Part shown: positions 3,216 through 31,862 of the stretch, piece by piece | How positions within the stretch are numbered: position 1 is the first letter of the stretch | Layout: each line of letters starts with the position of its first letter | Assembly: GCF_900095195.1 (NCBI RefSeq) | Contig: NZ_LT606950.1 | Coordinates: 817,207 to 849,206 of the forward strand | Direction: 5' to 3' | Origin: Polynucleobacter necessarius | Lineage (GTDB): Bacteria; Pseudomonadota; Gammaproteobacteria; Burkholderiales; Burkholderiaceae | DNA length: 32,000 nt | Notes under the pieces: generated by a model | Databases searched by the model: none | The model's input: the letters and a program-made list of their open reading frames with translations, nothing else | Told to the model about the DNA's origin: nothing | Program-made: the position numbers and the translations under genes

Positions 3216-3353
3216 CCCCTGATGACCTTCATAAACATTCAACATACGAGATGATAATTAATTTCCAATCGGGAGAGGCATTTTTACGCCCCAACTTGGG
3301 TTGGAGCCCCTACTCAGCAATCGTGGCGACCGTATCAGTCTGGCGGGCATTGA

Positions 3354-4171: not shown

Positions 4172-4407
4172 GAATATAGGGGGATAAATAAATCGTGTTT
4201 TAGTGAAGCGTTGATTTTAGGGCTTTTTAAAGGGGATCTCTCAATCAACGCCCTATTGCCCTGTTGATTCAAATCAAAAAGGATGGGGCAAACACGGGTG
4301 TAGATGATGCATTGTAATATTTCAGCAATATAATTTAGAAATCATTCTTGACCATTGTAGTCAGCAAGATCATAGTAAATATAGCGAACCCAAAGAAAGG
4401 GATTGGG

Positions 4408-4963
4408 ATGAACTTAACGCCAGAACAAATCGCGGCCGCGCAAAAAGCCAATTTAGAGACCTTAAGCGGGTTTAACCAGTCAAGCACTCCAAAGCATTGA
4501 GCGCTTAGTGGTACTCAATTTAGCGATTGCCAAACAAAGTTTGAGCGATAGCGTTAATAACGCCAAGAAAGCATTAGAAGTGAAAGATATTCAGCAACTT
4601 CTCGCCCATCAAGCGGAAACTGTTCAACCCATTGCTGAGAAAATTATTTCCTATAGTCGTCATTTATATGAACTGGCTCATGAAACACAAGATAGCTTTA
4701 CCAAATCTGCTGAGAAAGAATTTGCGGATGGTCAACAGAAGATGAATGTGCTCGTCGAAGAGTGGACTAAGCATGCTCCTCCAGGATCAGATGCCGCTGT
4801 TCAAGCACTTAAACAAGCAATTGCTTCTGCGAACAACGTTTATGAAACCAGTCAAAAAGCTGTCAAGCATGCTGTTGAGATTGCACAAACCAATATCAGC
4901 ACTGCAGCAGATGCTGTTGTCAAAACTGCTGGCGCTGCAAGCAAAGCCTCCAAGAAAAAATAA
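4408..4963 (+). pseudogene. phaP: phasin (PHA granule-associated protein), frameshifted
   Basis: ATG 4408, with RBS aaggga, opens the typical phasin N-terminus MNLTPEQIAAAQKANLETLS and hits TGA at 4498-4500. The continuation GLTSQALQSIERLVVLNLAIAKQ... lies in the +1 frame and joins the 151-aa ORF 4508-4963. The shift is at GGG 4468-4470. Confidence 0.8.
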
Positions 4964-6805: not shown

Positions 6806-6822
6806 AAATCTATCTACCTTCC

Positions 6823-8112: not shown

Positions 8113-8126
8113 GAATTGTTCTCACC

Positions 8127-10811
8127 TTAGACTGTCATTGGGTTTGGTTTAGATGGATCAATGCCATACTTCTTAATCGCCTCTGCTAGCTTCTGACGAT
8201 CCAGCCGACCTGCATCAACCAATGATCTCAACGCAGTCACAACCACCCAGCGACGATCGACTTCAAAGAAATCACGTAACTTTTCACGGGTATCGGAGCG
8301 TCCGAAGCCATCCGTACCCAATACTTCATAGCGACGACCCATGTGCTGAATTGCGGGACGAATTTGCTCTGCAAACAAACGCACATAGTCGGTTGCCGCA
8401 ACAATCGGGCCAGCGGTATCTTTAAAGCATTTCTCGACATGTGAAAGTACCGGGGTTGCGGTTGGATTGAGTAAGTTGGTCCGGTGAACAGCGTTCCAAT
8501 CACGACCTAGCTCAGTAAAGCTTGGACAACCCCACAGATCAGAAGCGATACCCCAATCTTTTTGGAGTAACTCTGCCGCTTCAATCACTTCACGGAAGAT
8601 TGTGCCAGATCCTAAGAGCTGTGCGCGCAATTTCGCATTCGCATCGCCAACTGACTTGAGTTTGTACATGCCCTTAATGATGTCTTTTTCAACACCTTTA
8701 GGCATAGCTGGATGCGCATAGTTCTCATTCATCAAGGTGATGTAGTAGTACACATCCTCCTGCACCTCTAGCATGCGACGCATACCATCTTGAATCACTA
8801 CAGCCAGTTCAAAAGCAAAGGTTGGATCGTAACTAATGCAATTCGGTACCGCCGCACTCCATAAATGGCTATGACCATCTTCGTGCTGCAAACCTTCACC
8901 ATTCAAAGTTGTTCTACCGGCTGTACCACCGAGCAAGAAGCCACGGCTACGCATATCGCCCGCAGCCCATGCCAGATCACCAATCCGCTGGAAACCAAAC
9001 ATCGAGTAGAAAATATAAAACGGCAACATCGGTACGCCATGCGTCGAGTACGATGTGGCGGCTGCGATCCAATCGCACATACCGCCCGCTTCATTAATAC
9101 CCTCTTGCAAGATCTGGCCAGTCTTATCTTCCTTGTAGAACATCAATTGATCATGATCTTCTGGGGTATAAAGCTGGCCCAATTGATTCCAAATGCCCAA
9201 TTGGCGGAACATTCCCTCCATACCAAAGGTGCGTGACTCATCAGGCACGATTGGGACCACGCGTTTACCAATGGTCTTATCGCGCACGATCGTATTGAGC
9301 ATGCGAACAAAAGCCATCGTGGTCGAAATCTCGCGACCCTCTGTAGTCGCCTCCAGTAGCGGTGCAAATGCATCTAACGCTGGCACTGGGAGACTCTCAG
9401 CTTTGGCACGACGCTGCGGTAAGTAGCCACCCAATTCTTGGCGACGCGCTTTCATGTACTCCAACTCAGGACTGCCTTCAGCGAATTTCACCAACGGCAT
9501 CTCTGCAAGTTGTTCGTCTTTTACAGGGATCTCAAAGCGATCACGGAAACGACGCACATCATCATCATTCATTTTCTTGGCTTGATGCGCAATATTCATG
9601 GCTTCGCCAGAGCCGCCCATGCCGTAACCTTTAATGGTGTGGGCCAAGATAACGGTAGGCTGATCTTTATGGTTTACTGCCGCATGAAATGCTGCATACA
9701 CTTTGAGTGGGTCATGACCGCCACGATTTAATTGCCAAATTTCATCATCACTCCAGTCGGCAACCAACGCTTTAAGTCCCGGCGTATTGAAAACCGTCTC
9801 GCGTACATACGCTCCGTTTTTGGCTTTCATGGTTTGGTACTGACCATCAACAATCTCGCCAAGACGTTGCATCAAGATCCCTTTTTTGTCGCGGGCAAAT
9901 AAGGCATCCCACTGACCACCCCAAACAACCTTAATCACATTCCAACCAGCACCACGGAACTCGCTCTCGAGTTCTTGAATAATTTTTCCATTGCCACGCA
10001 CTGGGCCATCCAAGCGCTGCAAGTTACAGTTGATCACAAAGATCAAGTTATCCAGCTTCTCGCGCCCCGCCATACCGATAGCACCTAATGATTCTGGTTC
10101 ATCGGTTTCACCGTCACCTAAGAATGCCCAAACTTTACGTCCCTGCTCTTGGATAAAACCACGACCACGCAAATACTTCATAAAGCGCGCTTGATAAATC
10201 GCCATAATGGGACCAAGGCCCATAGACACGGTTGGGAACTGCCAAAAATCTGGCATCAACCATGGATGCGGGTAACTGGAGATTCCATTACCGCCCACTT
10301 CTTGACGGAAGTTATTCAATTGATCATCGGTTAAACGACCCAACATGTACGCGCGGGCATACACTCCAGGCGCAGAGTGGCCTTGAACAAATATCAAATC
10401 GCCGCCATGCTTAGGAGATGGAGCATGCCAGAAATGGTTGTAACCAACGTCATATAAAGTCGCAGCAGATTGGAATGAAGAAATGTGTCCGCCAACGTTT
10501 GTATCTTTATTAGCACGCAGCACCATTGCCATGGCATTCCAACGTGTGTAGGAACGAATATGATGCTCGACATTTTGATCACCTGGTAGTCGCGCCTGAT
10601 TCTCAACTGGAATCGTATTGATGTATGGCGTCTCCGCATGGAACGGTTGATTTACACCATTCACACGCGCATGCGAAATTTGCTGATCAATTAAATAAGC
10701 AGCACGTTGCGGCCCTTCGTTATGAATGACACCGTCTAATGCTTGCAGCCATTCTTGTGTTTCAACGGGATCGGCATCATTGCCCAATACTTTGTCAGGA
10801 ACTGCAGCCAT
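8127..10811 (-). CDS. aceE: pyruvate dehydrogenase E1 component (homodimeric type)
   Basis: 894 aa with ThDP-binding motif GDGETDEPES..N. It lies immediately upstream of aceF-lpdA on the same strand. Confidence 0.95.
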   Translation of the reverse strand: MAAVPDKVLGNDADPVETQEWLQALDGVIHNEGPQRAAYLIDQQISHARVNGVNQPFHAETPYINTIPVENQARLPGDQNVEHHIRSYTRWNAMAMVLRANKDTNVGGHISSFQSAATLYDVGYNHFWHAPSPKHGGDLIFVQGHSAPGVYARAYMLGRLTDDQLNNFRQEVGGNGISSYPHPWLMPDFWQFPTVSMGLGPIMAIYQARFMKYLRGRGFIQEQGRKVWAFLGDGETDEPESLGAIGMAGREKLDNLIFVINCNLQRLDGPVRGNGKIIQELESEFRGAGWNVIKVVWGGQWDALFARDKKGILMQRLGEIVDGQYQTMKAKNGAYVRETVFNTPGLKALVADWSDDEIWQLNRGGHDPLKVYAAFHAAVNHKDQPTVILAHTIKGYGMGGSGEAMNIAHQAKKMNDDDVRRFRDRFEIPVKDEQLAEMPLVKFAEGSPELEYMKARRQELGGYLPQRRAKAESLPVPALDAFAPLLEATTEGREISTTMAFVRMLNTIVRDKTIGKRVVPIVPDESRTFGMEGMFRQLGIWNQLGQLYTPEDHDQLMFYKEDKTGQILQEGINEAGGMCDWIAAATSYSTHGVPMLPFYIFYSMFGFQRIGDLAWAAGDMRSRGFLLGGTAGRTTLNGEGLQHEDGHSHLWSAAVPNCISYDPTFAFELAVVIQDGMRRMLEVQEDVYYYITLMNENYAHPAMPKGVEKDIIKGMYKLKSVGDANAKLRAQLLGSGTIFREVIEAAELLQKDWGIASDLWGCPSFTELGRDWNAVHRTNLLNPTATPVLSHVEKCFKDTAGPIVAATDYVRLFAEQIRPAIQHMGRRYEVLGTDGFGRSDTREKLRDFFEVDRRWVVVTALRSLVDAGRLDRQKLAEAIKKYGIDPSKPNPMTV

Positions 10812-11035
10812 AACGTGTCTCCAATGGTTTTTCAGTAATTACTGCTATGTCATCTGTTAATCAATCACTCTATAGGCGATATTCTAGGAACGTATATGGG
10901 TGTATACAAGGAATTTTCCACATAATGGGAATATTTCTCATAATGTGAGATTATATTGCGATGCAAATAAAACCGCTCTCAAAGACCAGAAAATCCAATT
11001 GGACTGAGTAGCTAGGGCAAAATGGGTTTATTCGT

Positions 11036-13503
11036 ATGAAATCCACGGTTTTATCTCGACTCGTCCTCGCCCCAATTCAATGGCTCCGCAAAATTCGGTG
11101 GTTTCGACTCGTCTATACCCCTTTGTTAGCGATTGTTTTATTTACCGCTGTCATGGGCATTATTTTGGCACCCTCCACCTCCAGGAGAAGGGTCAACAAG
11201 AAGCATTAGCATTTGCCAAACAGCGTATTCAACTGCGCTTTGCAAATAACTCAGAATCACTCAATACACTCAATCGCGAAATTGCTGCGAGTAGCGAGGA
11301 TCCAAAACTCAAACAATTGGTTCGCGAGCAATCGAATGATCTGGTTCAAAACAACCAAGAGATCATTAAGGTAGTTTAGTTGGATGCAAATAGTTCACGT
11401 GTGTGGTCTGTTCCCACCAATATCCAAAAGTCAGAGTGGGATGCTCAGCTCGAAAAAAATCCTGTGGTGGCGGAAAGCCTCGCTACTACCATTGAGCTTA
11501 GTCGCATCACTGGCAGAACTGCATTTAGTAAATTTGTGATCTTGAATATGCCTGGGGAACCAAGCAAGGAAAAGAGAACACTTTTTTGGCAAGTCGCATC
11601 CAACATTGTGGGTGGTGAAGCGATTGGCTTCTTAGCTGCTCTCTACACCACACAGGGCATCTTGGATATTATTCCCGGGGAACTCACAGCCCTTTATCGT
11701 TTCACACTCCTGACGGACGATGATCGAGTCCTATCCATCTCATCCGATCGGGATACACCTAAAAGAGCCTTTAAGTTTAGATATGGGCGTACTGAGTCCG
11801 AATCTTGTTCTACGCATTGATACTTATCCTCCGTCTACCAATCATTTCGGATGTTGATTGGCGTTGTACTGGGTTTATCAGCATTTGTGATTTGGAGCCT
11901 TTGGTCTGTTTTGAAGCAGATGCAAGTTCGCCAAGAAGCAGAAGCAAGTCTGTGAAACGAAACGAATTTTCGTAATGCCATGGAAAATTCGACGCCAGTC
12001 GGTATTCGCGCACACGATATGCAAAAAAGAATTACCTATGTCAATCGCGCATTTTGTGAAATGACGGGCTGGTCTGCTAATGAACTCACGGGACTAGAGC
12101 CCCCTTTTCCATTTTGGCCAGACTCTCGACGCGATGAAATAGTGGACAAGATGAATCGCGCCCTGCGTTCGGAAATTAGCCTCAAAAACGGTATTGAAGG
12201 CGTCATTATGCGGCGCGATGGCACCTTAATTCAGATGCGTACCTTCCCCCCTAATTAATGAGAAAGGAAAGCAAACGGGATGGGTCACTTCATTAATTGA
12301 TATTTCTGAACCGAAAAAGATTCGTGAAGAATTAGCCGCATTCCAAGAGCGCTTTATTACCGTTCTTAATGGCTTGGATGCAGCGGTGTCAGTAGTCGAT
12401 CTGGAAAATGATCAACTCCTCTTTGCTAACCGCTTCTACCGCGAAAACTTTGGTGATGACTCTAAGGGACACTCCTTGCTATCTGGCGACACCAATAACT
12501 TAAAAACGCTTCATGAAGTGGCGGAAGATCTGCAAGAGTCTCCCCCTGGAATTCCGACTTCATTGCTGTATCAGGAGTCCGAATCTGAGGAAGTGCAGTT
12601 AAGCGAAAGTAACAATCGTTGGTATGAAGTGCGGCGTCGCTTTATTCCCTGGGTTGACGGTCGCCTAGCCCAGTTGCTAATTGCTACCGACATTACTGCT
12701 CGAAAAGAAGCGGACGAATTATCGCGCCAGCAAGAAGAACGTATGCAGTTTACGAGTCGTCTCACCACCATGGGTGAAATGGCATCCCCTCTCGCTCATG
12801 AATTAAATCAACCACTCTCGGCAATTTCCAATTACTGCATGGGAGTTGCCAAACGATTGGAAGACAATCTTGATCCCACCGTCTCTAAGGATATCTTGCC
12901 TGCACTGGAAAAGACCTCTGAGCAAGCGCATCGTGCTGGCACCATCATTCAGCGCATTCGTAGCTTTGTTAAACGCAGCGGACCACAACGCAAATCCAGC
13001 GGCATTAATGTCAACGCTGCAGTTGGGCTAGTAGAAGTTGAGGCGCATCGTCATCGTCTCAGTATTAGCTCCAGTATTGGCGAAAACTTGCCATTAGTGG
13101 ATATTGATCCCGTATTGATTCTGCAGGTTTTAGTCAATCTCCTCAAAAATGCCCTCGACAGTACGCGGGAAGCCTACCCTCTCTCCTCTCGTTGGTCAGC
13201 CCCACCCGTCAATATCAGCGCCGATCTGGATACGAGCACTTTTCCGGCAATGTACGGGGTTCAGGTCACGGATGGCGGGTCCGGAATCCCCGAATCCGTG
13301 CTGGAGCGCATGTTTGAGCCGTTTTTTAGTACAAAATCCGGTGGTATGGGTATGGACTCAATATCTGCCGATCCATCATCGCATCCCATCATGGCCGGCT
13401 TTGGGCGGTAAACCGCATGGACTCAGAACATACCAAGCTGGTTGGCTGCACCATTACAATATTGCTACCCCTAGTTTCCCTAGAAGCTAGCAACAATACT
13501 TAA
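11036..13503 (+). pseudogene. PAS-domain sensor histidine kinase, heavily disrupted
   Basis: ATG 11036 gives a TM N-terminus (LVYTPLLAIVLFTAVMGIIL). Lesions in order: frameshift near 11167-11171; in-frame TAG 11377-11379; in-frame TGA 11818-11820; in-frame TGA 11953-11955; +1 shift in C6 12246-12251; shift at 13354-13355. The PAS domain (STPVGIRAHDMQKRITYVNRAFCEMTGW), H-box (LAHELNQPL), N-box (LLKNALDS) and G-boxes (DGGSGIP, STKSGGMGMG) are all recognisable. The restored C-terminus GLNICRSIIASHHGRLWAVN... ends at TAA 13501-13503. Confidence 0.85.
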
Positions 13504-13539
13504 CCGATTTACCTATCCGACAAGCTTGTGAGAACCCAT

Positions 13540-14133
13540 ATGAACTTGAGCGCAACTACTAAACCAAACCAGGCCGAAGTTGTCTACGTAGTAGATGATG
13601 ATGAAGCCGTTCGTGACTCGCTCACTTGGTTGTTAGAGAGCAATGGCTATGTTGTGCGCTGTCATGCAAGCACAGAACGCTTCTTGCAATCTTTGCAAAG
13701 TACCGATAAATCGACAATTTCGTGCACCATCCTGGATGTGCGTATGCCTGACATGTCTGGCCTGGAATTGCAAGAGCGGCTCATCAGCGAAAACTTACCA
13801 ATGCCAGTCGCATTCATCACAGGTCACGGCGATGTCTCGATGGCCGTTTCGACCATGAAACGCGGTGCAGTGGATTTCATTGAAAAACCATTTAAAGAGA
13901 ATGATCTTTGCGGTTTAGTCGATCGCATGTTAGCCAAAGAGCGCGTGGATTACTCCCAAGCGAGCCAGCGCAAAATTACGCAAAGCCTATTAGGCAAGTT
14001 AACTGGGCGTGAGCGCCAAGTTCTGGAACGCATCGTGGCTGGACGCTTAAACAAGCAAATTTATGGAAAAGCTCAACGTCAATACCGTTCGGACTTGCTG
14101 CGTCTTGCCTTGTCTGACCCACAACCGAATTAA
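13540..14133 (+). pseudogene. FixJ/LuxR-type response regulator with damaged HTH
   Basis: The receiver domain is intact (DDDEAV, LDVRMPDMSG, TGHGD, KPF). In the output domain, LTGRERQVLERIVAGRLNKQI is followed by a missing stretch at about 14060-14062. Then MEKLNVNTV is encoded out of frame (14062-14088), and the original frame resumes at SDLLRLAL. The ORF stays open only because the two indels compensate. Confidence 0.7.
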
Positions 14134-14145
14134 TTAACGCTGCTC

Positions 14146-15000
14146 ATGCCCGCTCAATTACTCGACGGAAACGCGCTCTCTAAGAAGTTGCGCGCAGAAA
14201 TTGCGGCACGCGGGGCGATTGTGACCGCCAAAGGCGTTCGTCCGAGTTTAGCGGTCATTGTGGTGGGCGCTAATCCTGCTAGCCAGGTCTATGTGCGCAA
14301 CAAAGTCAAAGCCTGTGAGGATGTTGGCTTTCATTCTGTGCTGGAGCGCTACTCTGCCGAGTTAGGCGAAGAAGAATTGCTCGCTCGTATCGCGACACTC
14401 AATGCCGATCCTTCCATTCATGGCATCTTGGTGCAACTCCCCCTTCCAGAACATATTGCGTCTGAGCGCGCGCTCGAAGCAATCGCTCCAGAAAAAGATG
14501 TGGATGGCTTTTACGTTGCGAATGCCGGCGCCCTCATGGTTGGACAACCCCAATTTAAGCCCTGCACCCCATATGGCTGCATGAAAATCCTAGAAAGCAT
14601 TGATTACCCCATTCGCGGTGCTCGCGCTGTCATCGTTGGCGCATCGAATATTGTGGGCAAGCCGATGGCCATGCTCTTGTTGCAAGCTGGCGCCACCGTC
14701 ACGATCTGCAATAGTAAAACACGGGATTTAGCGCACCACACGAAAGATGCCGATATTTTGGTGGTTGCCACCGGTAAACCCAAAATGATTTCGGGCGACA
14801 TGGTGAAAAATGGCGCCGTGGTGATTGATGTTGGCATTAACCACTTACCAGACGGCAAGCTCTGCGGCGACGTCGATTTTGATAATGCGAAATACGTAGC
14901 GGGCTGGATCACCCCTGTGCCAGGTGGGGTTGGTCCGATGACAATCACCATGCTCTTGATGAACACTTTAGAGGCGGCTGAAAAAGCAGCCACACTATAG
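14146..15000 (+). CDS. folD: bifunctional methylenetetrahydrofolate dehydrogenase/methenyl-THF cyclohydrolase
   Basis: 284 aa with typical FolD sequence ([45 protein letters not shown]). Confidence 0.95.
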
Positions 15001-15018
15001 ATCCATTAAGCTAGAGGG

Positions 15019-17154
15019 ATGAATACATCTCCCTCTGCACCCCTCTTTTCTTTACCAGCCGATTTACAGAACAATCCGCTTTTGACCTTTGGTCGAGGCA
15101 TTGCCGCCTATTCAACAATTGAGCCAAAGCACATTACACCGGCGATTGAGTTCCTGTTAAAGCACGCACAGGCAGCAGTCGATACCGCTACCAACCAAAA
15201 TACACCATCAACCTGGCAAGACCTCGCGGAACCGCTTGAGGATGCCACTGAAGCCCTTGGAAGATCGTGGGACGTTATTTCACATCTTAATAGTGTAGCG
15301 GATACACCGGAACTAAGAGCGGCCTATGGCGCAATGTTACCGCAGGTCACTGCGTTCTTTTCAAGCTTGGGACAAAACCTAGCGCTCTATCAAAAGTTTA
15401 AAGAACTAAGCAAGAGTCCAGAATTTGCCACACTCAATCGTGCGCAAAAGAAAGTTATCGAAAACTCCTTACGCGATTTTCGTCTCGGTGGCGCAGAACT
15501 GAGTGATGCGGACAAACCCCGTTTTGCACAAATACAAGATGAGCAAGCGATTCTTGGTAAAGCATTTTCGGATCATGTGCTCGATGCAACCGATGGGTTT
15601 GTACATGTAGTCACCAATGAAGCTGATCTGATCGGTTTACCAGAAGATGTCAAAGCAGCGGCAGCCGATACCGCCTCGCAAAAAGACCTTCAAGGTTGGG
15701 CATTTACACTGCACTTCCCTTCCTACTATCCGGTTTTGCAATATTCCGAGAATCGTGAGTTACGGAAATTGATGTATGAGGCATACGTCACCCGAGCTTC
15801 CGAACTCGGACCTCAGTATGCCAAAGGTAATAGCGCTTGGGATAACACGCAAAACATGCTCGACCAACTCAAGTTGCGTGATGAAGAAGCGCGTATGCTA
15901 GGGTTTGCCAATTTTGCCGCCCTCAGTCTGGCGCCGAAGATGGCGAATGCCGTCGATGAAGTGGATCGCTTTTTAACGAACTTTGCGGAAAGAGCAAAAC
16001 CATACGCGCAAAAGGACTGGGATGAGCTTTGCGAATTTGCCAAACAGAATTTAGGTCTAGTAGATGGAGTGCAACCTTGGGACACTGCGTTTGCCGCTGA
16101 AAGACTTAAGCAAGCACGCTACGCATTTTCTGAAAACGAACTGAAGCAATACTTTCCATTGCCTAAAGTACTCGATGGTCTGTTTGGCGTCATTCAAACT
16201 CTCTTTGGCGTCAAGATCGAATCGGCGAATCTGCCAACCTGGCATGCTGACGTTCAATCCTTTGCAGTCAAAGATACCTCCGGAAATACTCGGGCTTACT
16301 TTTACCTAGACCCTTATGCTCGCCCTGGTAAACGAGGCGGAGCCTGGATGGATGATGCCCGAGGTCGTCGCGTACTGCCCAACGGCGACATTCAAATTCC
16401 GGTCGCGTATCTCGTGTGCAACTTTGCACCACCCGTGACAGTAGATGGAGTGCTGCGACAACATACCATTACGCATGATGATGTTATTACTCTCTTTCAT
16501 GAGAGCGGACATGGGCTCCACCACCTCTTAACGCAAGTCAGCGCTTTAGGCGTATCCGGTATTAATGGCGTTGAATGGGATGCCGTGGAGCTACCTAGTC
16601 AGTTTATGGAAAACTTCTGCTGGGAGTGGGAGGTCTTGGAAAAAATGACTGCCCACGTTGACACTGGTAAACCATTACCGCGTGACTTATACGAAAAAAT
16701 GCTTGCGGCAAAAAATTTCCAGAACGGTTTAATGACCCTGCGGCAAATTGTTATGTCTCTGACTGACTGGAGGCTGCACTCTCGCTTTGATGTAACCACC
16801 GCTCAAGGTCATGCCGTATTAGATCTGTCCAGAAAAATCGCGGCAGAATATAACGTCATTCCCCAACCAAAGATCTCCTGTTGGATTAATACCTTTAGCC
16901 ATATTTTTGCTGGCGGTTATGCGGCGGGTTACTACAGCTATAAATGGGCCGAAGTTCTCTCAGCAGATGCCTATTCTGCTTTTGAGGAGGCAGCCAAGCT
17001 CACGGGCACCGTATTGGATCTCCAAACTGGAGCGCGCTACCGTGAGGAAATATTGGAGGTAGGTGGTAGTCGTCCCGCCGCCGAATCCTTTAAAGCGTTT
17101 CGCGGAAGAGAACCCAGCATCGATGCCCTATTGCGACATGGAGGCATGGCTTAA
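15019..17154 (+). CDS. prlC: oligopeptidase A (M3 metallopeptidase)
   Basis: 711 aa. The zinc motif HExxH is present as FHESGHGLHH. Length and flanking sequence are M3-family. Confidence 0.92.
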   Translation: MNTSPSAPLFSLPADLQNNPLLTFGRGIAAYSTIEPKHITPAIEFLLKHAQAAVDTATNQNTPSTWQDLAEPLEDATEALGRSWDVISHLNSVADTPELRAAYGAMLPQVTAFFSSLGQNLALYQKFKELSKSPEFATLNRAQKKVIENSLRDFRLGGAELSDADKPRFAQIQDEQAILGKAFSDHVLDATDGFVHVVTNEADLIGLPEDVKAAAADTASQKDLQGWAFTLHFPSYYPVLQYSENRELRKLMYEAYVTRASELGPQYAKGNSAWDNTQNMLDQLKLRDEEARMLGFANFAALSLAPKMANAVDEVDRFLTNFAERAKPYAQKDWDELCEFAKQNLGLVDGVQPWDTAFAAERLKQARYAFSENELKQYFPLPKVLDGLFGVIQTLFGVKIESANLPTWHADVQSFAVKDTSGNTRAYFYLDPYARPGKRGGAWMDDARGRRVLPNGDIQIPVAYLVCNFAPPVTVDGVLRQHTITHDDVITLFHESGHGLHHLLTQVSALGVSGINGVEWDAVELPSQFMENFCWEWEVLEKMTAHVDTGKPLPRDLYEKMLAAKNFQNGLMTLRQIVMSLTDWRLHSRFDVTTAQGHAVLDLSRKIAAEYNVIPQPKISCWINTFSHIFAGGYAAGYYSYKWAEVLSADAYSAFEEAAKLTGTVLDLQTGARYREEILEVGGSRPAAESFKAFRGREPSIDALLRHGGMA

Positions 17155-17161
17155 GGCCGAT

Positions 17162-17768
17162 TCAATCCTTCCAAGTGGGATGTTTTTCCATAATGGATTG
17201 AAATAATGCGGATTCCAGATGCTCTTGCAACCATTGATGCGTGCGAGGTATCGGTAGGCGCATAAATTGCTCAGGGCACACCATCGAGAATTGTCTAATA
17301 AACAGAAAGATGGCGATATCAACCCATGACTGTGCATTCAAGCAACTACTAGATCAATACAAGTATCCCAATCACTACCCTGAAATCAAACAGGAGACGG
17401 TTTTGCAGGAAGCAAGCGAGCTGATGCTCAAACCCATGGAGGTAGCGCTCCAACAGCATCGCTATCTCTTGGGTAATGGTCCATCATTGATTGCAATCCA
17501 ATTCTGGGTTTGGTCTGATCCACCTGATTCAACCTTCAGGGTCGGCTTGCTCTAGGGCCCAATGCACGATATCCAAACTTTGATCGATCACCCGGTCGCC
17601 CACACACAGCACTGGCACTGTTCCTTTAGGAGAAACGAGCAACATGGATTTTGGCTTTTCGCGCAAAGCAATTTCACGATGCTCGACTGCTATGCCAGCA
17701 TACCTTAGAGCCATTCGCGCTCGCATGGCATAGGGACTTCTTCGATACGAATACAAAATGGGCATCAT
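17162..17768 (-). pseudogene. glutathione S-transferase-like protein, disrupted by a frameshift and an internal inversion
   Basis: The N-terminal thioredoxin-like domain (MMPILYSYRRSPYAMRARMALRYAGI..SPKGTVPVL) lies on the minus strand at 17768-17529. The C-terminal part (WVDIAIFLFIRQF...HQWLQEHLESALFQSIMEKHPTWKD*) lies on the minus strand at 17327-17162. The middle 52 codons are encoded on the plus strand. Confidence 0.85.
17328..17485 (+). other. 158-bp inverted segment of the GST-like gene
   Basis: The plus strand reads DCAFKQLLDQYKYPNHYPEIKQETVLQEASELMLKPMEVALQQHRYLLGNGPS. Reverse-complementing exactly 17328-17485 joins ...QNWIAIN to DCAFKQ... and ...GNGPS to WVDIAIF... in one frame. The breakpoints carry the inverted 4-mer ATGA/TCAT. 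Confidence 0.85.
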
Positions 17769-17795
17769 CGATGCGCGTTCAACAAAATTATTACT

Positions 17796-18644
17796 CTAGG
17801 ATTTTTTGATTGTGGCAATAACCGGAGCGTGATCCGAGGGTTGCTCCCAAGTTCTCGGCTCTTTATCCACCACACTCGCCTGACATTTTTCTTTCAAGGC
17901 ATTACTCAAGAGAATATGGTCGATGCGCAAGCCTGCATTTCTGCGAAAACCCATCATCCGATAGTCCCACCAACTATACGTTTTAGGCGCTTGCTCAAAC
18001 ATGCGAAAAGAATCGTGCAGACCTAAGTTGGTAAGCGCCTGAAACGCATTACGCTCGGGTGGCGATACCAAATTTTGCCCTTCCCATGCCTTCGGATCAT
18101 GCACGTCTTCGTCCGTTGGTGCGATATTGAAATCTCCTAGCAATGCCAAGCGCTGATTCTGATCCAACTCCCCTGCCAACCAGGATTGCAATGAATTGAG
18201 CCAATTTAGCTTGTACGCAAATTTATCGCTATCGGGCGATTGACCATTCGGAAAGTAAGCCGAGACCAATCGAATGGGTTGTGTACCAGCAAATGGAATG
18301 GTTGCCGCCAAAATACGCTGCTGTTCATCTTCAAAATTGGGGATATTGCGCGTGGGATTGAGGAACGTGGTTGCTGCATCAGATGCTATCGATGCCAAAG
18401 CTGCTTTGCGCACAATAATAGCCACACTGTTATACGTTTTTTGGCCAGCTGCCAGACTGACGTAACCAGCAGCCTCTAATTCTGCATGGGGGTACTTATC
18501 ATCTGTGAGCTTGAGCTCTTGCAAACACAGCCCATCAACTGCTTGCTGCTTTTTTTCTTGATCTTGTAACCAACGAAGTACGTGTGGAAGGCGAACCTTT
18601 AAAGAGTTCACATTCCACGCGGCAATTCGGATTGAATCAGTCAT
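17796..18644 (-). CDS. xthA: exodeoxyribonuclease III
   Basis: The ORF track extends to 18725, but the homologous start is MTDSIRIAAWNVNSL at ATG 18644. Catalytic residues are present (WNVNS, LQE, GDFNIAP, WWDYR, SDHAPV). The start overlaps the ntrC stop as ATGACTGA. Confidence 0.9.
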   Translation of the reverse strand: MTDSIRIAAWNVNSLKVRLPHVLRWLQDQEKKQQAVDGLCLQELKLTDDKYPHAELEAAGYVSLAAGQKTYNSVAIIVRKAALASIASDAATTFLNPTRNIPNFEDEQQRILAATIPFAGTQPIRLVSAYFPNGQSPDSDKFAYKLNWLNSLQSWLAGELDQNQRLALLGDFNIAPTDEDVHDPKAWEGQNLVSPPERNAFQALTNLGLHDSFRMFEQAPKTYSWWDYRMMGFRRNAGLRIDHILLSNALKEKCQASVVDKEPRTWEQPSDHAPVIATIKKS

Positions 18645-20085
18645 CGATCCCAAGTTCCTGCAATTTTCGGGTGATCGTATTGCGTCCAATGCCAAGGCGT
18701 TGAGCTGTTTCAACACAACGGCCACGAGTGACCTCTAAAGCGGCTTGCAATACCGCTTTCTCAAAACGAGAGCAAAGAGCATCGTAAACCTCTTTGTCTC
18801 CATCTTGCAGCATCTTGATTGCTAACCGGCTCAGACCATTCTCCCAATCTCCAGATGGCGACTTTCCTGATGTGTGCATGGAAGCAGACTCACCTTGCTG
18901 CGCTGCGGACAGTGCACTTGCTTCAGCAACGATATCCGTTGGCAGATCACCCACCCCTATGACGTTAGTTGGGGTCATCACAATCAACCAATGGCACAAG
19001 TTTCCCAACTGCCGCACATTCCCTGGGAATGGCATAGCGCTCATTTCCTTGAGTACCTCATCCGAGAGTTTCTTGGGCTCAACCCCCATCGCTTTGGCGC
19101 AGGAAAGCATAAAGTGTTTCGCTAACACGGGAATGTCTTCACTGCGCTCACGCAATGATGGCATACGCAGGCGAATCACATTTAAGCGATGCATTAAATC
19201 TTCGCGGAACAATCCTGCCGCTACACGTTGCTCAAGATTTTGATGGGTGGATGCAATTACACGCACATTAACCTTGATGGGGTCTTGTCCGCCGAGGCGA
19301 TAGAAGTGCCCATCAGTTAATACGCGCAGTAAACGCGTTTGCAAATCAAAAGGCAAATCGGCAATCTCACCGATAAAGAGTGTGCCGCCATCCGCCTGCT
19401 CTAAACGACCACGACGTAGCGTTTGCGCACCCGGAAATGCGCCACGCTCATGACCAAATAATTCCGATTCCAGCAAGTCCTTAGGTACCGCAGAGGTGCT
19501 CAGCGATACAAAAGGTCCTTTTACACGAGGGCTATGCTTATGCAACGCATGCGCTACCAACTCTTTACCAACCCCAGACTCACCCGTAATCAGAACCGTT
19601 GTGTGCGATTGTGCAAGGCGACCAATAGCGCGAAAGATTTCTTGCATCGCCGGCGCTTTTCCAATAATTTCAGTCGCCTCAGGTCGAATGCCGCCTAACT
19701 CCTTCTTATCCGTTTCGCTACGAATGCCCTGCTCTACCGCACGACGTATGAGCTCAACCGCTTTCTCAGTATCAAAGGGTTTGGTTAGATATTCAAATGC
19801 GCCGCCCTGGAAAGACGATACTGCGGAATCCAAATCCGAGAATGCTGTCATGATGATGACTGGTAAATTGGGATGACTTGCTTTCACATGTTGCAATAAA
19901 TCCAAACCATTACCGCGCGGCATCCGAATATCGGAAATCAAGACCTGGGGGGGTTCTTTTTCCAGACTATTCAGTACATCATTTGGATTCGAAAAGCTTT
20001 TATGGGGAATATTATCCCGCGCTAACGCTTGTTCTAATACCCAACGAATAGATTGGTCATCATCGACGATCCAAATTGGCTTCAT
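18637..20085 (-). CDS. ntrC: nitrogen regulation protein NR(I), sigma54-dependent response regulator (ORF intact, key motifs atypical)
   Basis: 482 aa with receiver domain (SDIRMP), AAA+ domain (GESGVGKE, FREDLMHRLNV, PGNVRQL) and Fis-type HTH. The loop reads GAFPGA instead of GAFTGA, and Walker B reads LFIGE instead of LFLDE. Confidence 0.9.
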   Translation of the reverse strand: MKPIWIVDDDQSIRWVLEQALARDNIPHKSFSNPNDVLNSLEKEPPQVLISDIRMPRGNGLDLLQHVKASHPNLPVIIMTAFSDLDSAVSSFQGGAFEYLTKPFDTEKAVELIRRAVEQGIRSETDKKELGGIRPEATEIIGKAPAMQEIFRAIGRLAQSHTTVLITGESGVGKELVAHALHKHSPRVKGPFVSLSTSAVPKDLLESELFGHERGAFPGAQTLRRGRLEQADGGTLFIGEIADLPFDLQTRLLRVLTDGHFYRLGGQDPIKVNVRVIASTHQNLEQRVAAGLFREDLMHRLNVIRLRMPSLRERSEDIPVLAKHFMLSCAKAMGVEPKKLSDEVLKEMSAMPFPGNVRQLGNLCHWLIVMTPTNVIGVGDLPTDIVAEASALSAAQQGESASMHTSGKSPSGDWENGLSRLAIKMLQDGDKEVYDALCSRFEKAVLQAALEVTRGRCVETAQRLGIGRNTITRKLQELGIDD

Positions 20086-21215
20086 GATGCTTTCTCCTGC
20101 CTACGGTATGGAATTTGAATATGAAAATCGGTACGACCAGGGCGGCTTTCGCACGCTATAAAGCCCCGGTGCCGCTGGACAAAGGTCTGCGCAAGAGTCA
20201 GGCTAAGACCACTACCCCCTTCGCGACCCGAGACGAGTGGAAAGAAGATGCGTTCAATAATTTCTTCTGGTATGCCTGGGCCGTTATCAATCACGTGTAG
20301 ATCCATTGCCAACTTGTACCGCTTCTTGGCAATAGTTACGGATCGAGCGACTCGGGTCTTCAATTCGATTTTCGCTGTGCCAGCATGAATTTCTTCCGCA
20401 AGCGCGTGGGCGGCGTTATGCACAGTATTTAATACTGCCTGAATCAATTGCTCACGATCACCCATCACCTCGGGCAAGCTCGTGTCGTAGTTACGAATGA
20501 TTCGAAGGCCTTTGGGAAACTCTGCCAGCACCAAACTGCGCACGCGCTCAAGGGCTTCATGCACATTGAATGACTCCATCACATGCGCCTTGCGGTGTGG
20601 TGCCAATAGCCTATCAACTAAGGTCTGTAGTCGATCAGACTCTTTAATAATGACCTGCGTGTACTCACGCAGACCTTTTTCAGATAATTCAAATTCGAGC
20701 AACTGCGCCGCCCCCCGAATTCCTCCCAGAGGATTTTTAATTTCGTGAGCTAAATTGCGCAATACTTGTTTGTTCGCCTCAACCTGTTGTGTAACCCGCT
20801 CATCGCGCTCGCTACGCAACTGCTGATCAATCGGAAACCATTCCACCATGATCAAGGCTGGATCTTCTAAAGCGGCAATCACAACGTGTGCCGGAATGGA
20901 ATCTTGATGAATACTTCCCGGCAATGAATGCAACACCATCTCTTGGCGCTGCGCCGAGACATTACTATGCTTCACCTCAGTGATCATGGCATTTAGTGCG
21001 GTGTTATCACCAAATAAATCGTGCACAGATTGACCCTCAAGCGCTTTACGTGACAGATCCAATGCTGACTCTGCAGCTGGGTTCACATAAACCAATTGTT
21101 GGTTCTCCGCCTCAAAAACCACGATGGCATTGGGCATCTGATCGAACAATGTCGGAAAAAAAGGAGCAGCCGAAGCTGCTCCCTTGAACAAATTGCGCAA
21201 CAAACCTGCGCTCAA
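20082..21215 (-). CDS. ntrB: nitrogen regulation sensor kinase NR(II)
   Basis: 377 aa. TTG start, preceded by aaggagag. H-box HEIKNPLGGIRGAAQLL and G1 box DNGPGIP are present. ATGA overlap with ntrC. Confidence 0.9.
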   Translation of the reverse strand: MSAGLLRNLFKGAASAAPFFPTLFDQMPNAIVVFEAENQQLVYVNPAAESALDLSRKALEGQSVHDLFGDNTALNAMITEVKHSNVSAQRQEMVLHSLPGSIHQDSIPAHVVIAALEDPALIMVEWFPIDQQLRSERDERVTQQVEANKQVLRNLAHEIKNPLGGIRGAAQLLEFELSEKGLREYTQVIIKESDRLQTLVDRLLAPHRKAHVMESFNVHEALERVRSLVLAEFPKGLRIIRNYDTSLPEVMGDREQLIQAVLNTVHNAAHALAEEIHAGTAKIELKTRVARSVTIAKKRYKLAMDLHVIDNGPGIPEEIIERIFFPLVSGREGGSGLSLTLAQTFVQRHRGFIACESRPGRTDFHIQIPYRRQEKAS

Positions 21216-21229
21216 GTTCTCTCCTTCGC

Positions 21230-22645
21230 TTACAGGGAGTAGTACATATCAAATTCAACTGGATGAGTTGTCATACGGAAACGTGTGACATCCTCACTCT
21301 TCAACGCGATGTAAGCGTCGAGCATTGAATTTGTAAATACACCGCCACGAGTCAAGAACTCACGATCTTTATCCAAAGCTTCCAATGCTTGATCCAAGCT
21401 ATGGCAAACGGTTGGGATCTTTGCATCTTCTTCTGGTGGCAAGTCATACAAGTTCTTGTCAGCAACTTCGCCTGGGTGAATCTTGTTCTGAACACCGTCC
21501 AAACCAGCCATCAACAAGGCAGAGAATGCCAAGTATGGGTTCGCCAATGGATCTGGGAAGCGAGTTTCGATACGACGACCTTTTGGGTTCGAAACGTGTG
21601 GAATACGAATCGAAGCAGAACGGTTACGTGCAGAGTAAGCCAACTTCACAGGAGCCTCAAAGCCCGGAACCAAACGCTTGTAGGAGTTTGTACCTGGGTT
21701 TGTAATTGCATTCAATGCACGTGCGTGCTTGATGATGCCGCCGATATAGTAGAGAGCGAACTCTGACAAACCTGCATAACCATTGCCTGCAAACAAGTTC
21801 TCGCCATTCTTCCAAACGGATTGGTGAACGTGCATACCAGAACCATTGTCGCCAACTACTGGCTTAGGCATAAAGGTTGCAGTCTTACCGTAAGCATGTG
21901 CTACGTTCTGAATCACGTATTTTTGCCAAATAGTCCAGTCAGCGCGCTGTACCAAAGTGCTGAACTTGGTGCCCAATTCGTTTTGGCCTTGACCGGCAAC
22001 TTCATGGTGATGTACTTCAACTGGAATGCCCAATGATTCAAGAATCAAGCACATCTCAGAACGCATATCTTGGAATGTATCGACTGGAGCGACTGGGAAG
22101 TAACCACCCTTCTTACCTGGACGGTGGCCAGTGTTGCCGCCTTCGATTTCGGCGCCAGAAGACCATGGAGCTTCTTCAGAATCAATCTTCACGAAGCAGC
22201 CTTGCATATCAGCACCCCAACAAACGCCGTCAAATACAAAGAACTCTGGCTCTGGACCAAAGTAAGCAGCATCGCCCAAACCGGAGCTCTTCAAATACGC
22301 TTCAGCACATTTTGCAATAGAGCGTGGATCGCGATCGTAACCTTTGCCATCAGATGGCTCGATCACATCACAGGTCAGAACCAATGTTGGCTCTTCATAG
22401 AATGGGTCAATATAAGCAGCTGTTGGATCTGGCATCAACAACATGTCAGAAGCTTCAATGCCTTTCCAACCAGCGATAGAAGAACCGTCAAATGCATGAC
22501 CGCTCTCAAATTTGTCTTCGTCAAAAGCAGAAATCGGTACTGTTGTGTGTTGCTCTTTACCCTTTGTATCTACAAAGCGGAAATCAACGAAAGTACATTC
22601 TTTCTCTTTAACTAACTTCATCACATCAGCGACGGTCTTCGTCAT
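21230..22645 (-). CDS. glnA: glutamine synthetase type I
   Basis: The homologous start [24 protein letters not shown] is at ATG 22645, behind RBS gaggagag; the ORF track extends to 22714. The adenylylation-site context [10 protein letters not shown] is present. Confidence 0.95.
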
Positions 22646-22709
22646 GCAACTCTCCTCTATAAACAAAACTCGGAATTCAAACGTAAGGCATACACCCTTG
22701 TTTATTCCA

Positions 22710-22725
22710 GGCATTCAACATACCG
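22710..22725 (-). promoter_or_regulatory. weak candidate sigma54 (-24/-12) promoter for glnA
   Basis: The minus strand reads cGGtatgttgaaTGCc, giving GG-N10-GC spacing. It is only a partial match to TGGCAC-N5-TTGC. It lies about 65-80 nt upstream of the glnA ATG. Confidence 0.3.
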
Positions 22726-22774
22726 ATTGGATGTATGTAATTTACTGAAACAAACAACGGGGAACACTCATTAT

Positions 22775-22791
22775 TGCACCAATTAAGTGCT
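22775..22791. promoter_or_regulatory. NtrC-type enhancer site (proximal)
   Basis: TGCACCAATTAAGTGCT contains GCAC-N7-GTGC, the core of the NtrC consensus TGCACC-N5-GGTGCA. Confidence 0.5.
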
Positions 22792-22826
22792 GAACTGGGC
22801 TGTTTTAATCCTTAAAACTGGGGTTT

Positions 22827-22843
22827 TGCACCGTTTTAGTGCC
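22827..22843. promoter_or_regulatory. NtrC-type enhancer site (distal)
   Basis: TGCACCGTTTTAGTGCC contains GCAC-N7-GTGC. Its centre is 52 bp (about 5 helical turns) from the proximal site. Confidence 0.5.
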
Positions 22844-22851
22844 TTACAGAG

Positions 22852-23717
22852 CTAGACAATATCGTGAATTTCATAGCCCAGTTCTTGAGTGCCCGTTCTG
22901 AGGGCAATCCACGCACCTTCAAGGAGATTGGCGTTGCCTTTGATACCTAATTCAATATGGCGCTGGGCGTATACCCCGCCTTTGCTGGAGTCTCCTACTG
23001 AGGGCAGACTTAAATACCTTAACCCCCAGAAAGCTGGCCTCAATCCGCTCCATCAAGGGGGTCAAAGTGGATTCAATGCCCTTGGGAACAATGAAGCTTT
23101 GTTCAGCCCAATTTTCTCGATGAAAGAGATCTTGGTAATGCGTGTCCAGGCACCATGCCATCATCGGTGCAGCCATCACTAGGAAACCCGGCAAAAAGTG
23201 ATGTTCTCGAATCCGAAATCCTGGAATTTGGTTATAGGGGTTCAGAATGATTTCGCTACCAAGCGGAAACTCACCCATCTTGAAGCGCTGTTGATTCTCT
23301 GGAGTGCTTAAATCTGACTTGATTGGATCGCCCTCCGCCATCGACTGAATGCGCCCAGCAATCAACTCTCCCGCGGTTGGATGCAATTCGGTTTTTGTGC
23401 CTAGGGCAAGTGCCGCACATTGGCGAGTGTGATCATCCGGTGTAGCACCAATCCCACCCAGTACTAAACACCACATCGCCACTAGCAGAACTGTCTTTCA
23501 GGGTTGCGGTAATTTGCTCAGGATCATCTGCAACATATTTAGCCCAAGATAGACTCAAGCCACGCTCATTGAGCAACTCAATCAGCTTACTCAGATGTTT
23601 ATCTTGGCGACGACCTGACAAAATCTCATCACCAATCACAATCAAACCAAATCGTCTAGATGGGTAGCCATCAGACTCGGGAGCATCCACTGCGACTGTT
23701 CTCACTACATCATTCAT
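22852..23717 (-). pseudogene. CinA-like molybdopterin-binding (MoCF-biosynthesis domain) protein, two frameshifts
   Basis: Three fragments read consecutively: MNDVV..GLIVIGDEILSGRRQDKH..GDVVFSTG | GIGATPDDHTRQCAALALG...FLGVKV | SLPSVGDSSKGGVYAQRHIELGIKG..HDIV*. The shifts are at sense-strand GGG (plus 23457-23459) and around 23011-23018. Confidence 0.8.
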
Positions 23718-23721
23718 TTGA

Positions 23722-24591
23722 TTAACCATGATTTGGAAGTTCGGAGTCCGCAACACGCGCATGGACCGCGAGGGATTTCTCCAACTCTTCTTGTCTAAGA
23801 GCCTGTAAGGCATCTAGCAAAAAGTGGCTGAACCAGAGCGCTGCAAACACAAAGATTAGGGAGTAAATCCAGAGAGCAACAAAGCTCACGATCGGAAACA
23901 ATACCAATGCCAGCGCAGAGGTTGCCCAGAAAAACGTCGGTACTGCACCCAACATACCCGCAACCACGCCCATCGTCAGCAAAGGCCAACGATACTTCTC
24001 CAGTAATAAGTCACGCTCTTCTACGCTGGCATGTTTGGCCAATACGTCATAGGACATCAGTCGCATCGTCAGCCAGCCCCACAATAATGGCGGAAGAACG
24101 GCGACCAATGGTGGCACCCACCACACGGGCAACGTCAGCAGCACCAAGACTAGGCAAATCAGCGCAGACCATAAGGTGTAAACCAGACTTCCAAAAAAGC
24201 CGCTGCCTCGCTTGCATTCCAATCCCTGATACGCAGGTTGACGTGCAACTACATTCACAATAGCGGGCACGGTAGAGAAAGCAACGAATACCAGAAGGCT
24301 AATTGTGATGAGCGGAATGATCAGCATTACAAAAAATAGCGGAGCAATCCATGCTCGGGCGTTATCAAAGCCTGCCCAGATCAATCCCTCCTGAGTCCAG
24401 CTAGTGAAGATCGACGTCGTGAGAAAAATACTGAGGGCCTCTAATGCAGGAGTCCATGTTAACCAAATCAAGACGCCCCATAACACCGCGACAATCAAAA
24501 AGGGTCGCAGACTCAACCACAGCATGCGGGGATGCATGGTTCCTACTAGGGCAAGCCCAAACGATTTAAATACTTGTTGCAACCCAACCAT
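23722..24591 (-). CDS. EI24/CysZ-like multi-pass membrane protein
   Basis: Open frame with several predicted TM segments. The probable start is ATG 24591, behind gggag; the ORF track starts at TTG 24603. The family assignment comes from overall sequence character only. Confidence 0.55.
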   Translation of the reverse strand: MVGLQQVFKSFGLALVGTMHPRMLWLSLRPFLIVAVLWGVLIWLTWTPALEALSIFLTTSIFTSWTQEGLIWAGFDNARAWIAPLFFVMLIIPLITISLLVFVAFSTVPAIVNVVARQPAYQGLECKRGSGFFGSLVYTLWSALICLVLVLLTLPVWWVPPLVAVLPPLLWGWLTMRLMSYDVLAKHASVEERDLLLEKYRWPLLTMGVVAGMLGAVPTFFWATSALALVLFPIVSFVALWIYSLIFVFAALWFSHFLLDALQALRQEELEKSLAVHARVADSELPNHG

Positions 24592-24635
24592 ATGCACTCC
24601 CAAGACATACCGGGGGTATGTTTATTCTGGATATT

Positions 24636-26715
24636 TTACTTTGGCAATAGCTCTCGTACAGCGTGAACTAGGCCTTGCCATTGCTGCGTAGAGATATTAA
24701 GCAACCTTCTCCACCCATTGTGGCTCAATTTTGGCAATGGTGCGAGCGTACATGCGATTGGTTTCTTGGAGCTCCCCCGCCAGAATCCAAGCACCCGCCT
24801 TTTTACCAATCGTTGAGCCCGGCCAAATAAATGGACGTATTCCTCGAGCGCCCACATAACCGCCAGTTTTACTATTACGATCTTGTGACTTTTCATCTTC
24901 GTCTTTTTTAGCAACATAGCCCAATAGACCAGTGAGTAAAGCCAAGTGAATTTGTTCATAAGTCGCAGGTGTGCCATTCTCTTTCCACCCTTTTTCACCC
25001 AGCATGGTATGCAACTGCCCATGAACATCACGCCACTCTCACAAGCGTCTAGGCGATAAAAATTTACTGCGGCATAAATTTTCGAGCTGACGATTGCTGT
25101 GCTTGTGCTGTAATGCGTCCTGATACCAATCCCAAAGTTTTACAAAACTCAAAAATTCAGAACGCTCATCAGCAAACTGCAGATGCGCTTAATCAGCAGC
25201 TGCGCCCTGATCCATCGGTCACTCACGCGGATCTTGGGTGGCTAATGCGGATGCAATGATGGTGACCTCTCGGAGAGCATTTTGCTCTTTGGCGGCCAGC
25301 AACATCCTTCCTATACGCGGGTCTAGTGGCAAATCCGCTAATTGCTTACCAATCTGCGTGAGCTTAAATGAATGATGAAGCTCTTTCGCATCGGCCACTG
25401 ATGGCGCTTCGTATTCAATAGCACCCAGCTCATCCAATAGTTGCACGCCATCGGCAATTGCCCTGCCGAGTGGTTTATCTATAAATGGAAAGTGCTGAAT
25501 CTGCGGCAAGCGTAATGCACTCATGCGCAGCAAGACGGCTGCTAAAGAGCTACGCAAAATCTCGGGATCAGTAAATCTAGGACGACTTTGAAAATCTGCT
25601 TCGCTATATAGGCGCACACAAATACCATCCGCAACACGACCGCAACGTCCAGCACGTTGATTGGCAGCAGCTTGTGAAATGGGCTCTATCTGGAGTTGCT
25701 TCACCTTATTGCGGTAGGAGTACTGCTTTACTCTAGCCAAGCCACTATCAATCACATAGCGAATGTTGGGAACAGTGAGAGATGTTTCCGCAACGTTGGT
25801 AGTCAAAATAATGCGACGCCCATTACCGGGTGAAAAGACCCGCTCTTGCTCAGCTACCGACTGGCGCGCAAACAAACTAAGCACCTCAGGATGAAGGCGT
25901 TGTTGCAGCACATGGTCTTTACGCAATGCTTCAGCGCAATCCCGAATCTCCCGCTCTCCTGGTAAAAAAACCAGGACATCTCCCGATCCTGCCGAACCTT
26001 CTCGCCAAACCTTCGCGATTTCTTCGGCAACCGCCTCTGGAATTTCCTTAGCAGCCTTGGATTCTTTCTTGCTATCGGGCTCTAGGGGTGCGTAACGCTG
26101 CTCTACTGGAAATAATCTGCCACTTACCTCTATGACGGGGGCCACCTTGCCATTCAGTGCAAAGTGCTCGGCAAAACGTTGGGCGTCAATCGTTGCAGAA
26201 GTAATGATGAGCTTAAGGTCAGGCCTCTTAGGCAGCAGTTGACGCAAGTAACCCAACAAAAAATCAATATTGAGGCTACGTTCGTGCGCTTCGTCGATGA
26301 TGAGAGTGTCATACGCTTTTAATTGGGGATCGCGCTGCGTCTCAGCCAGCAAGATGCCATCGGTCATCAACTTGATGGAAGCGCCTTGAGTCGTTTTGTC
26401 GGCAAAGCGGACTTGATACCCCACATCTTGACCAATTGGCGTGCCCAACTCTTGCGCAATGCGTTTTGCCGGAGCGGTAGCAGCAATACGGCGGGGTTGC
26501 GTGTGGCCAATCAGCTTTCCGCCATTGATCGTCCCGCGACCGAGATCAACACAGATCTTGGGTAGCTGCGTGGTTTTACCGGAACCCGTCTCACCGCACA
26601 CAATGACTACTTGGTGGCTTTGCAAGGCATCTTTGATCAGTGGCCGCTGACCAGAGACTGGCAATTCTTCTGGAAAGCGGATCTCTAAGCGCCGTCCGGT
26701 GTTGGAAGCAGACAC
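24636..26715 (-). pseudogene. hrpA: ATP-dependent RNA helicase HrpA, nonsense-disrupted and 3'-truncated
   Basis: GTG start at 26715. DEAH-box motifs are intact (GETGSGKTTQ, DEAHERS, TSATID, TNVAETSLTV, QRAGRCGR). In-frame TGA 25219-25221, TAA 25189-25191 and TGA 25039-25041 occur in a single continuous frame that continues through ...FIWPGS..ILAGELQETNRMYARTIAKIEPQWVEKVA to TAA 24697-24699. A possible frameshifted remnant runs to about 24636. Nothing corresponding to the C-terminal roughly 500 aa of full-length HrpA is present. Confidence 0.88.
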
Positions 26716-31818: not shown

Positions 31819-31862
31819 GTTTACCTCTAAGAAATTTCAATAGTTATTTAAAAAAATATTTT

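Follow-up and report, generated by a model that had tools for sequence, protein, structure and literature searches.

A ~140-bp in-place inversion in a GST-family pseudogene of Polynucleobacter necessarius

A GST-family pseudogene between prlC and xthA

The 32,000-nucleotide stretch of P. necessarius DNA analysed here (the window) carries the PDH complex, a PAS-kinase, a regulator, folD, prlC, a GST, xthA, ntrCB, glnA and further genes in the order found in the isolate genome of Polynucleobacter sp. MG-6-Vaara-E2 (L083). The syntenic proteins are 85-96% identical to those of this isolate, neighbouring proteins are 88-96% identical to Polynucleobacter proteins, and the closest OpdA match is 91% identical. 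Exact-sequence searches with OpdA, XthA and the 79-residue N-terminal fragment gave no match. The GST locus is a GST-family pseudogene, the relic of a vertically inherited gene with intact syntenic orthologues, the order prlC-GST-xthA-ntrC being kept in L081, L082, L002, L003 and L083. The closest relative, L081, is a 2.9-kb Logan contig (SRR22045391) with 88% nucleotide identity that encodes an intact GST of 202 residues, while L082 is an ENA contig with 79.5% nucleotide identity. The gene caller began the intact orthologue of L081 (1701-2309) at Met19, giving 184 residues; the 202-residue frame from ATGATG is open and agrees with the other orthologues. The GST of L082 was likewise called at 184 residues.

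Both ends of the gene in the window lie on the minus strand, and its middle is readable solely on the plus strand, within an ORF of 104 residues. The gene and its parts are as follows.

17162-17768, minus strand: the whole GST-family pseudogene, 202 codons once repaired in silico, the length of the closest intact orthologue
17529-17768, minus strand: fragment with the N-terminal thioredoxin-like domain, a 79-residue ORF in frame 0 (PF13417, GST_N_3, E = 2e-19), with the active-site CPY changed to SPY
17530-17531, minus strand: first 1-nt deletion, a G lost from GGTTGG in the DNA alignment to L081, which removes the codon for the invariant Trp80 and produces the TGA that ends the N-terminal ORF
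17509-17530, minus strand: short stretch in the third frame, NQVDQTK, matching WNQVDQTKAQDW of the L082 orthologue
17508-17509, minus strand: second 1-nt deletion, by which a GCC alanine codon has lost its G, from the alignment to L081
17162-17335, minus strand: C-terminal GST part, (A)QSWVDIAIFLFIRQF...HPTWKD, with the stop TGA at 17162-17164 and P156L in the invariant IFPF motif
17241-17555, plus strand: the 104-residue ORF, a by-product of the inversion

The original prediction from the bare sequence was that a central segment of a GST-like gene had been inverted in place, and comparison with the orthologues bears this out. Alignment of the window to L081 by blastn breaks into three colinear pieces of which the middle alone is flipped: 2-1996 of L081 match window 19467-17475 (minus), 1993-2133 match 17335-17475 (plus, E = 5e-49) and 2141-2892 match 17330-16579 (minus). 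The same three-piece pattern is obtained with L082 and L083, and the central GST segment is inverted relative to every orthologue. Identity to L081 is 89.4% within the flipped segment, compared to 88.0-88.6% outside it. The plus-strand ORF at 17241-17555 had been attributed to the inversion as well; it indeed reads the C-terminal part in antisense, then the inverted GST segment, then the upstream part in antisense.

Undoing the inversion restores the gene. When 17328-17485 is reverse-complemented, as had been proposed, translation of the minus strand yields ...NWIAINDCAFKQ...GNGPSWVDIAIFLF...HPTWKD*, which is free of stops down to the TGA at 17162-17164. This reading, made with the outer of the two breakpoint placements described below, is uninterrupted from ...NWIAIN to ...HPTWKD*. 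The re-inverted protein has 4204 GST homologues, the best of which (E = 1e-94 to 1e-78, coverage 99-100%) are Polynucleobacter glutathione S-transferases of ~200 residues that align with it from end to end at 64-84% identity. A lack of colinearity with intact orthologues had been named beforehand as an observation that would refute the inversion, yet the re-inverted protein matches over 100 intact Polynucleobacter GSTs colinearly and can be aligned over its whole length to 114 orthologues. Once the two deletions are padded and the inversion is undone at the inner placement, the repaired gene has 202 codons and is 89% identical to the 202-residue gene of L081. For the N-terminal fragment, 84% is the best identity among the GTDB matches listed.

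Domain assignments agree with this reconstruction. PF13417 matches the N-terminal domain, over residues 5-77, at 67-70 bits against a cut-off of 22. For the C-terminal side, the GST domain PF13410 is recognised at 26.0 bits (cut-off 24.9) over residues 130-184, across the junction, in the re-inverted protein only; neither the central nor the C-terminal fragment alone gave a Pfam match to it. Among solved structures, SspA, tau and omega GSTs, DHAR and Grx2 come nearest (E = 1e-9 to 1e-5), and none of the NCBIfam equivalogs reaches its cut-off against the GST. With the cysteine-type GST superfamily (omega, lambda, DHAR, Grx2, SspA-like) the gene has in common an N-terminal domain that is thioredoxin-like and bears a CPY motif, and a helical C-terminal domain, although it differs from those members in being without a close solved or characterised homologue.

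The inversion is not the only damage. A single 1-nt frameshift had been predicted as the sole other lesion; there are instead two 1-nt deletions (~17531 and ~17509), lying 22 nt apart just upstream of the inversion, between the N-terminal ORF and the flipped piece, and three substitutions, C11S, R111H and P156L. Of the alignment columns, 87 show at least 95% conservation among the 114 orthologues; four of these differ in the window and one in L081. The four in the window are W80, which is lost, and the three substitutions, C11S lying in the active-site CPY; the substitutions fall in columns that are invariant in the 114 orthologues. Neither the frame nor the catalytic residue is thus intact, given the inversion, the two deletions, the change of the CPY cysteine to serine, the loss of W80, R111H and P156L. 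The inversion or either deletion alone would abolish the protein, and the inversion may not be the inactivating lesion among the three.

Placement of the breakpoints

The flipped segment and its two junctions are placed as follows.

17336-17477, plus strand: inverted segment at the favoured placement, with a core of 17339-17474 and an ambiguity of 17335-17478; the inverted blastn pieces against L081, L082 and L083 cover 17335-17475
17326-17338, no strand: left junction, ATGAcTGtgCATT, one arm of an imperfect 13-nt inverted repeat, with the favoured breakpoint in CATT at 17335-17338
17475-17487, no strand: right junction, AATGgtCCatCAT, the other arm of the repeat, with the favoured breakpoint in AATG at 17475-17478

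The arms match at 9 of 13 positions, with perfect blocks of 4 nt. Because the junctions sit in this imperfect repeat, two placements of the breakpoints restore the frame. The inner one (CATT/AATG, 17335/17339 to 17474/17478) reconstructs an ancestor with NDGPFK...GNAQSW. The outer one, with the same inversion running from 17326/17329 to 17484/17487 between ATGA and TCAT (~158 bp), reconstructs NDCAFK...GNGPSW. The outer placement is that of the original prediction, which set the breakpoints at 17328-17485, gave the segment 158 bp and counted 52 central codons on the plus strand. It restores an open frame equally well, it too has 4 nt of inverted microhomology, and its product still scores 354.7 bits on the orthologue HMM.

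The breakpoints nevertheless lie at the inner placement, and the outer one is very improbable. The right flank as it stands reads AATGATGGACCATT on the coding strand and equals L081 at 14 of 14 positions, and blastn homology of this flank stops exactly at 17475 in at least 12 independent orthologous loci, rather than reaching 17485. At the other end, un-inverted L081 has GAT GGA CCA at the first site, which belongs to a conserved motif, ND-G-[P/Q/R]-FK: glycine is present in 21 of 22 orthologous loci and proline in 17 of 22, whereas none has the Cys or Ala that the outer placement calls for. That placement would need four substitutions within 5 nt at the conserved Asp-Gly-Pro codons, and the reverse complement of GGTCCA would by chance have to recreate the orthologue's TGGACC exactly. 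Over the ten disputed nucleotides the inner placement matches L081 at eight and the outer at two. The orthologue HMM (n = 114) gives 360.5 bits for the inner placement, 5.8 bits ahead of the outer, and 257 for the un-inverted sequence. With the conserved site alone counted and a background identity of 88%, arithmetic from the alignments puts the likelihood ratio for the inner placement above 10^3.

The evidence of the flank, the motif, the blastn ends and the HMM thus makes the flipped piece 136-144 bp long. Within it, at 17337-17477, 47 GST codons (FKQLLDQYKYP...YLLGN) lie on the wrong strand, five fewer than had been counted for the longer segment, and the 'DCA' and 'GPS' at the ends of that 158-bp segment are antisense readings of flanking codons. 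The earlier observation that the junctions carry just 4 nt of inverted microhomology stands, with CATT/AATG favoured in place of ATGA/TCAT.

Origin of the inversion and its precedents

The locus is best explained, with good though not complete confidence, by a fixed, one-off, in-place inversion of ~140 bp in a cysteine-type GST-superfamily gene between prlC and xthA of a gene-losing Polynucleobacter genome. Fixation and a single orientation are assumed here. The flip places 47 codons from the start of the helical C-terminal domain on the wrong strand, and its persistence would mean that the gene was no longer selected or that its loss was tolerated. An inverted sequence identity of 4 nt, CATT/AATG, is present at both breakpoints. 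For a random 142-bp inversion in the window, the chance of at least 4 nt of junction microhomology is 0.018, which points to a microhomology-mediated illegitimate event as the probable origin.

Rearrangements of this kind are already known. Schofield, Agbunag and Miller reportedly described, in Genetics in 1992, spontaneous inversions in E. coli that were recovered under laboratory selection and had arisen between inverted repeats of 12-23 bp. Shared with those is an in-place flip of a few hundred base pairs or less inside or beside a gene, at short inverted identities and without a dedicated recombinase; the present case differs in having only 4 nt of perfect identity (9 of 13 in the imperfect repeat) and in being a natural lesion in a pseudogene. 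Template-switch mutations are said to have been treated in Ripley's quasipalindrome model and by Loytynoja and Goldman in 2017. Template-switch spacer inversions resemble the GST lesion in that a spacer between short inverted arms is reverse-complemented while the arms are left in place. Those found in yeast coding sequence have arms of >9 bp and spacers of 2-5 bp and cause in-frame amino-acid changes (PMC8604942), whereas the GST inversion, with 4-bp arms, a 136-bp spacer and loss of function as its outcome, does not fit the arm and spacer geometry of the documented coding cases.

As a lesion type the inversion is uncommon and, as a documented example, modestly unusual. The original prediction had called small inversions rarely documented as gene-inactivating lesions. 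That remark is plausible and fair, because a dedicated survey of bacterial pseudogene lesions (indels) contains no occurrence of the word 'inversion'; the underlying kind of event is nonetheless a known one.

Two routes could have produced the inversion at the 4-nt microhomology: replication could have switched template onto the opposite strand and then back, or two breaks could have been joined there. The rearrangement is exactly reciprocal and conserves length, and the arms retain different centres (CTGTG and TGGAC), so no arm conversion has taken place. A template switch with asymmetric switch points, which would convert an arm, is rejected on the same differing centres. When the reconstructed ancestor is folded as single-stranded DNA, the arms pair with a probability of ~0.001, which makes a hairpin-driven route unlikely. 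That the fragment was flipped and re-ligated after two double-strand breaks or a topoisomerase-mediated exchange, rather than by replication template switching, is a serious possibility, if somewhat short of an even chance. It accords with the exact reciprocity, the kept length, the unconverted arms and the negligible predicted pairing, and with a 136-bp spacer far above those of the yeast spacer inversions (PMC8604942). The sequence, however, separates neither route from the other.

The inverted orientation could also be an error of assembly or sequencing, the segment not being inverted in the organism, or a programmed state. No independent assembly with the junction was found, as the right junction gave no match in metagenomes in one exact and one degenerate scan. 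An artefact is nevertheless quite unlikely, because the piece is shorter than a typical read, its repeats measure 4 nt and its divergence is like that of the flanks. Single reads of essentially any platform would span both junctions of a ~140-bp piece with a 4-nt repeat at each end, and assemblers, on general reasoning, mis-join at repeats of at least k-mer length. Divergence from L081 is equal inside and outside the segment, and the two independent frameshifts and the changes at invariant residues are those expected of a truly dead gene.

Intragenic invertons are flips that an enzyme makes, reversibly, between recognisable inverted repeats, and the genes that hold them are otherwise intact (Chanin et al., bioRxiv 10.1101/2023.03.11.532203). 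Like the GST inversion, they lie wholly within coding sequence, introduce premature stops and split ORFs; premature-stop examples occur in other bacteria (bioRxiv 10.1101/2023.03.11.532203), and an imperfect 13-nt inverted repeat (9/13) brackets the segment here. It is nonetheless extremely improbable that the segment is turned by a site-specific recombinase as a means of switching or recoding the gene, and a programmed switch is rejected because recognisable repeats are lacking, the 20 largest ORFs include no recombinase and the re-inverted gene is still dead. The perfect repeats measure 4 nt, compared to 11 nt in the characterised thiC inverton (bioRxiv 10.1101/2023.03.11.532203), and no inverted repeat of at least 8 nt is present at the junctions. 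Both arms, AATGAT..CCATT and TCATGG, belong to ordinary coding sequence that is widely conserved among the orthologues. A scan of the 20 largest ORFs of the window returned no recombinase or invertase domain. The two frameshifts and the lost catalytic cysteine would persist after flipping back, so that the GST, in contrast to genes carrying invertons, is dead in either orientation.

Age of the lesions and gene loss in the window

Divergence from L081 bears on when the gene was lost. dS is ~0.56 for the GST and its neighbours alike, and dN/dS is 0.094 for the GST compared to 0.034 for xthA, 0.059 for the ntrC-like gene and 0.044 for prlC. The rise in the GST is modest, stems mainly from the C-terminal third and, on small numbers, goes in the direction expected for relaxed constraint. 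The low value suggests that most of the divergence arose under purifying selection and that, compared with the split from the closest known relative, inactivation was recent, perhaps on the order of 0.03 substitutions per site ago as a rough figure.

Gene loss extends beyond the GST. Four of the 15 genes whose order is shared with Polynucleobacter sp. MG-6-Vaara-E2 have been disrupted or have lost most of their sequence, namely the PAS-kinase, the GST, a MoCF-biosynthesis gene and a fatty-acid hydroxylase. The PAS/histidine-kinase gene (11036-13497, plus strand), which encodes 838 residues in that isolate, is interrupted by three or more changes of frame. Downstream of it, the response regulator (13528-14133) is intact. 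The MoCF-biosynthesis gene (22858-23729, minus strand; 290 residues in the isolate) has two frameshifts. The last ~39 codons are left of the fatty-acid hydroxylase (24639-24743, minus strand), which has 323 residues in the isolate.

Such a profile suggests a genome in early reductive evolution, as in host-restricted Polynucleobacter, and by analogy a symbiotic lifestyle. Boscaro et al. reportedly described, in 2013, P. necessarius endosymbionts of Euplotes with pseudogene-rich, host-restricted genomes. The lesions usually reported in host-restricted Polynucleobacter genomes are frameshifts, stops and deletions. The window resembles those genomes in genus, in its conserved gene order and in the disruption of about a quarter of its syntenic genes, yet it differs from them in that one of its lesions is an inversion. 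Taxonomic background on the genus is available (PMC5018217).

A perfect tandem duplication with a 125-bp unit (2.1 copies, 100% identical) occupies window positions 1986-2246. An 11-nt direct repeat, GGTTGCGCTCC, bounds it. A frameshifted IclR-like gene has its 3' end here, and the duplication abuts the end of a D-Ala-D-Ala carboxypeptidase ORF (2217-3245). This duplication is a recent slippage-type structural lesion.

The duplication and the inversion could both be instances of a lineage-specific process, namely raised microhomology-mediated template switching or slippage in a host-restricted Polynucleobacter that has lost repair or exonuclease functions, an idea that is improbable at present. 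Comparison of window positions 5142-24689, 19.5 kb in all, with 22 kb of Polynucleobacter sp. MG-6-Vaara-E2 by blastn and tblastx revealed no further small inversions; the leftover strand-discordant tblastx matches stem from paralogous domains of kinases or regulators or are noise. An inversion process acting across the genome is so far unsupported, the GST inversion being the sole such event in the 19.5 kb compared. If the process were real, small inversions would be a recurrent route of inactivation in early genome reduction that pseudogene callers systematically miss, and many such events, if found genome-wide, would indicate an undescribed mutational signature of early genome decay.

By itself the locus is a single dead gene, and its value is mainly methodological. 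An in-place flip of ~140 bp splits one pseudogene into three seemingly unrelated fragments and creates a spurious 104-residue ORF, so that standard annotation would miscount both genes and pseudogenes. The locus is also a natural and clean case of DNA rearranged at no more than 4 nt of inverted microhomology, and a relative with 88% identity allows its ancestral state to be rebuilt to the nucleotide.

Elsewhere in the window, frameshifts are also present in the IclR-like, EamA-like and LIP-like genes. Three further regions are probable pseudogenes: fragments of the IclR-like regulator in three frames (1136-2217, plus strand), fragments of an EamA-type transporter (3245-4500, minus strand) and an HrpA-like helicase ORF of just 498 residues that stops inside the HA2 domain (25219-26715, minus strand). 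A LIP-family lipase gene lies between prlC and the GST in L083 (12233-13555) and is missing at that position in the window. A frameshifted LIP copy with 59% identity is located 13 kb away (30548-31824, minus strand) and may be a paralogue or the relocated gene.
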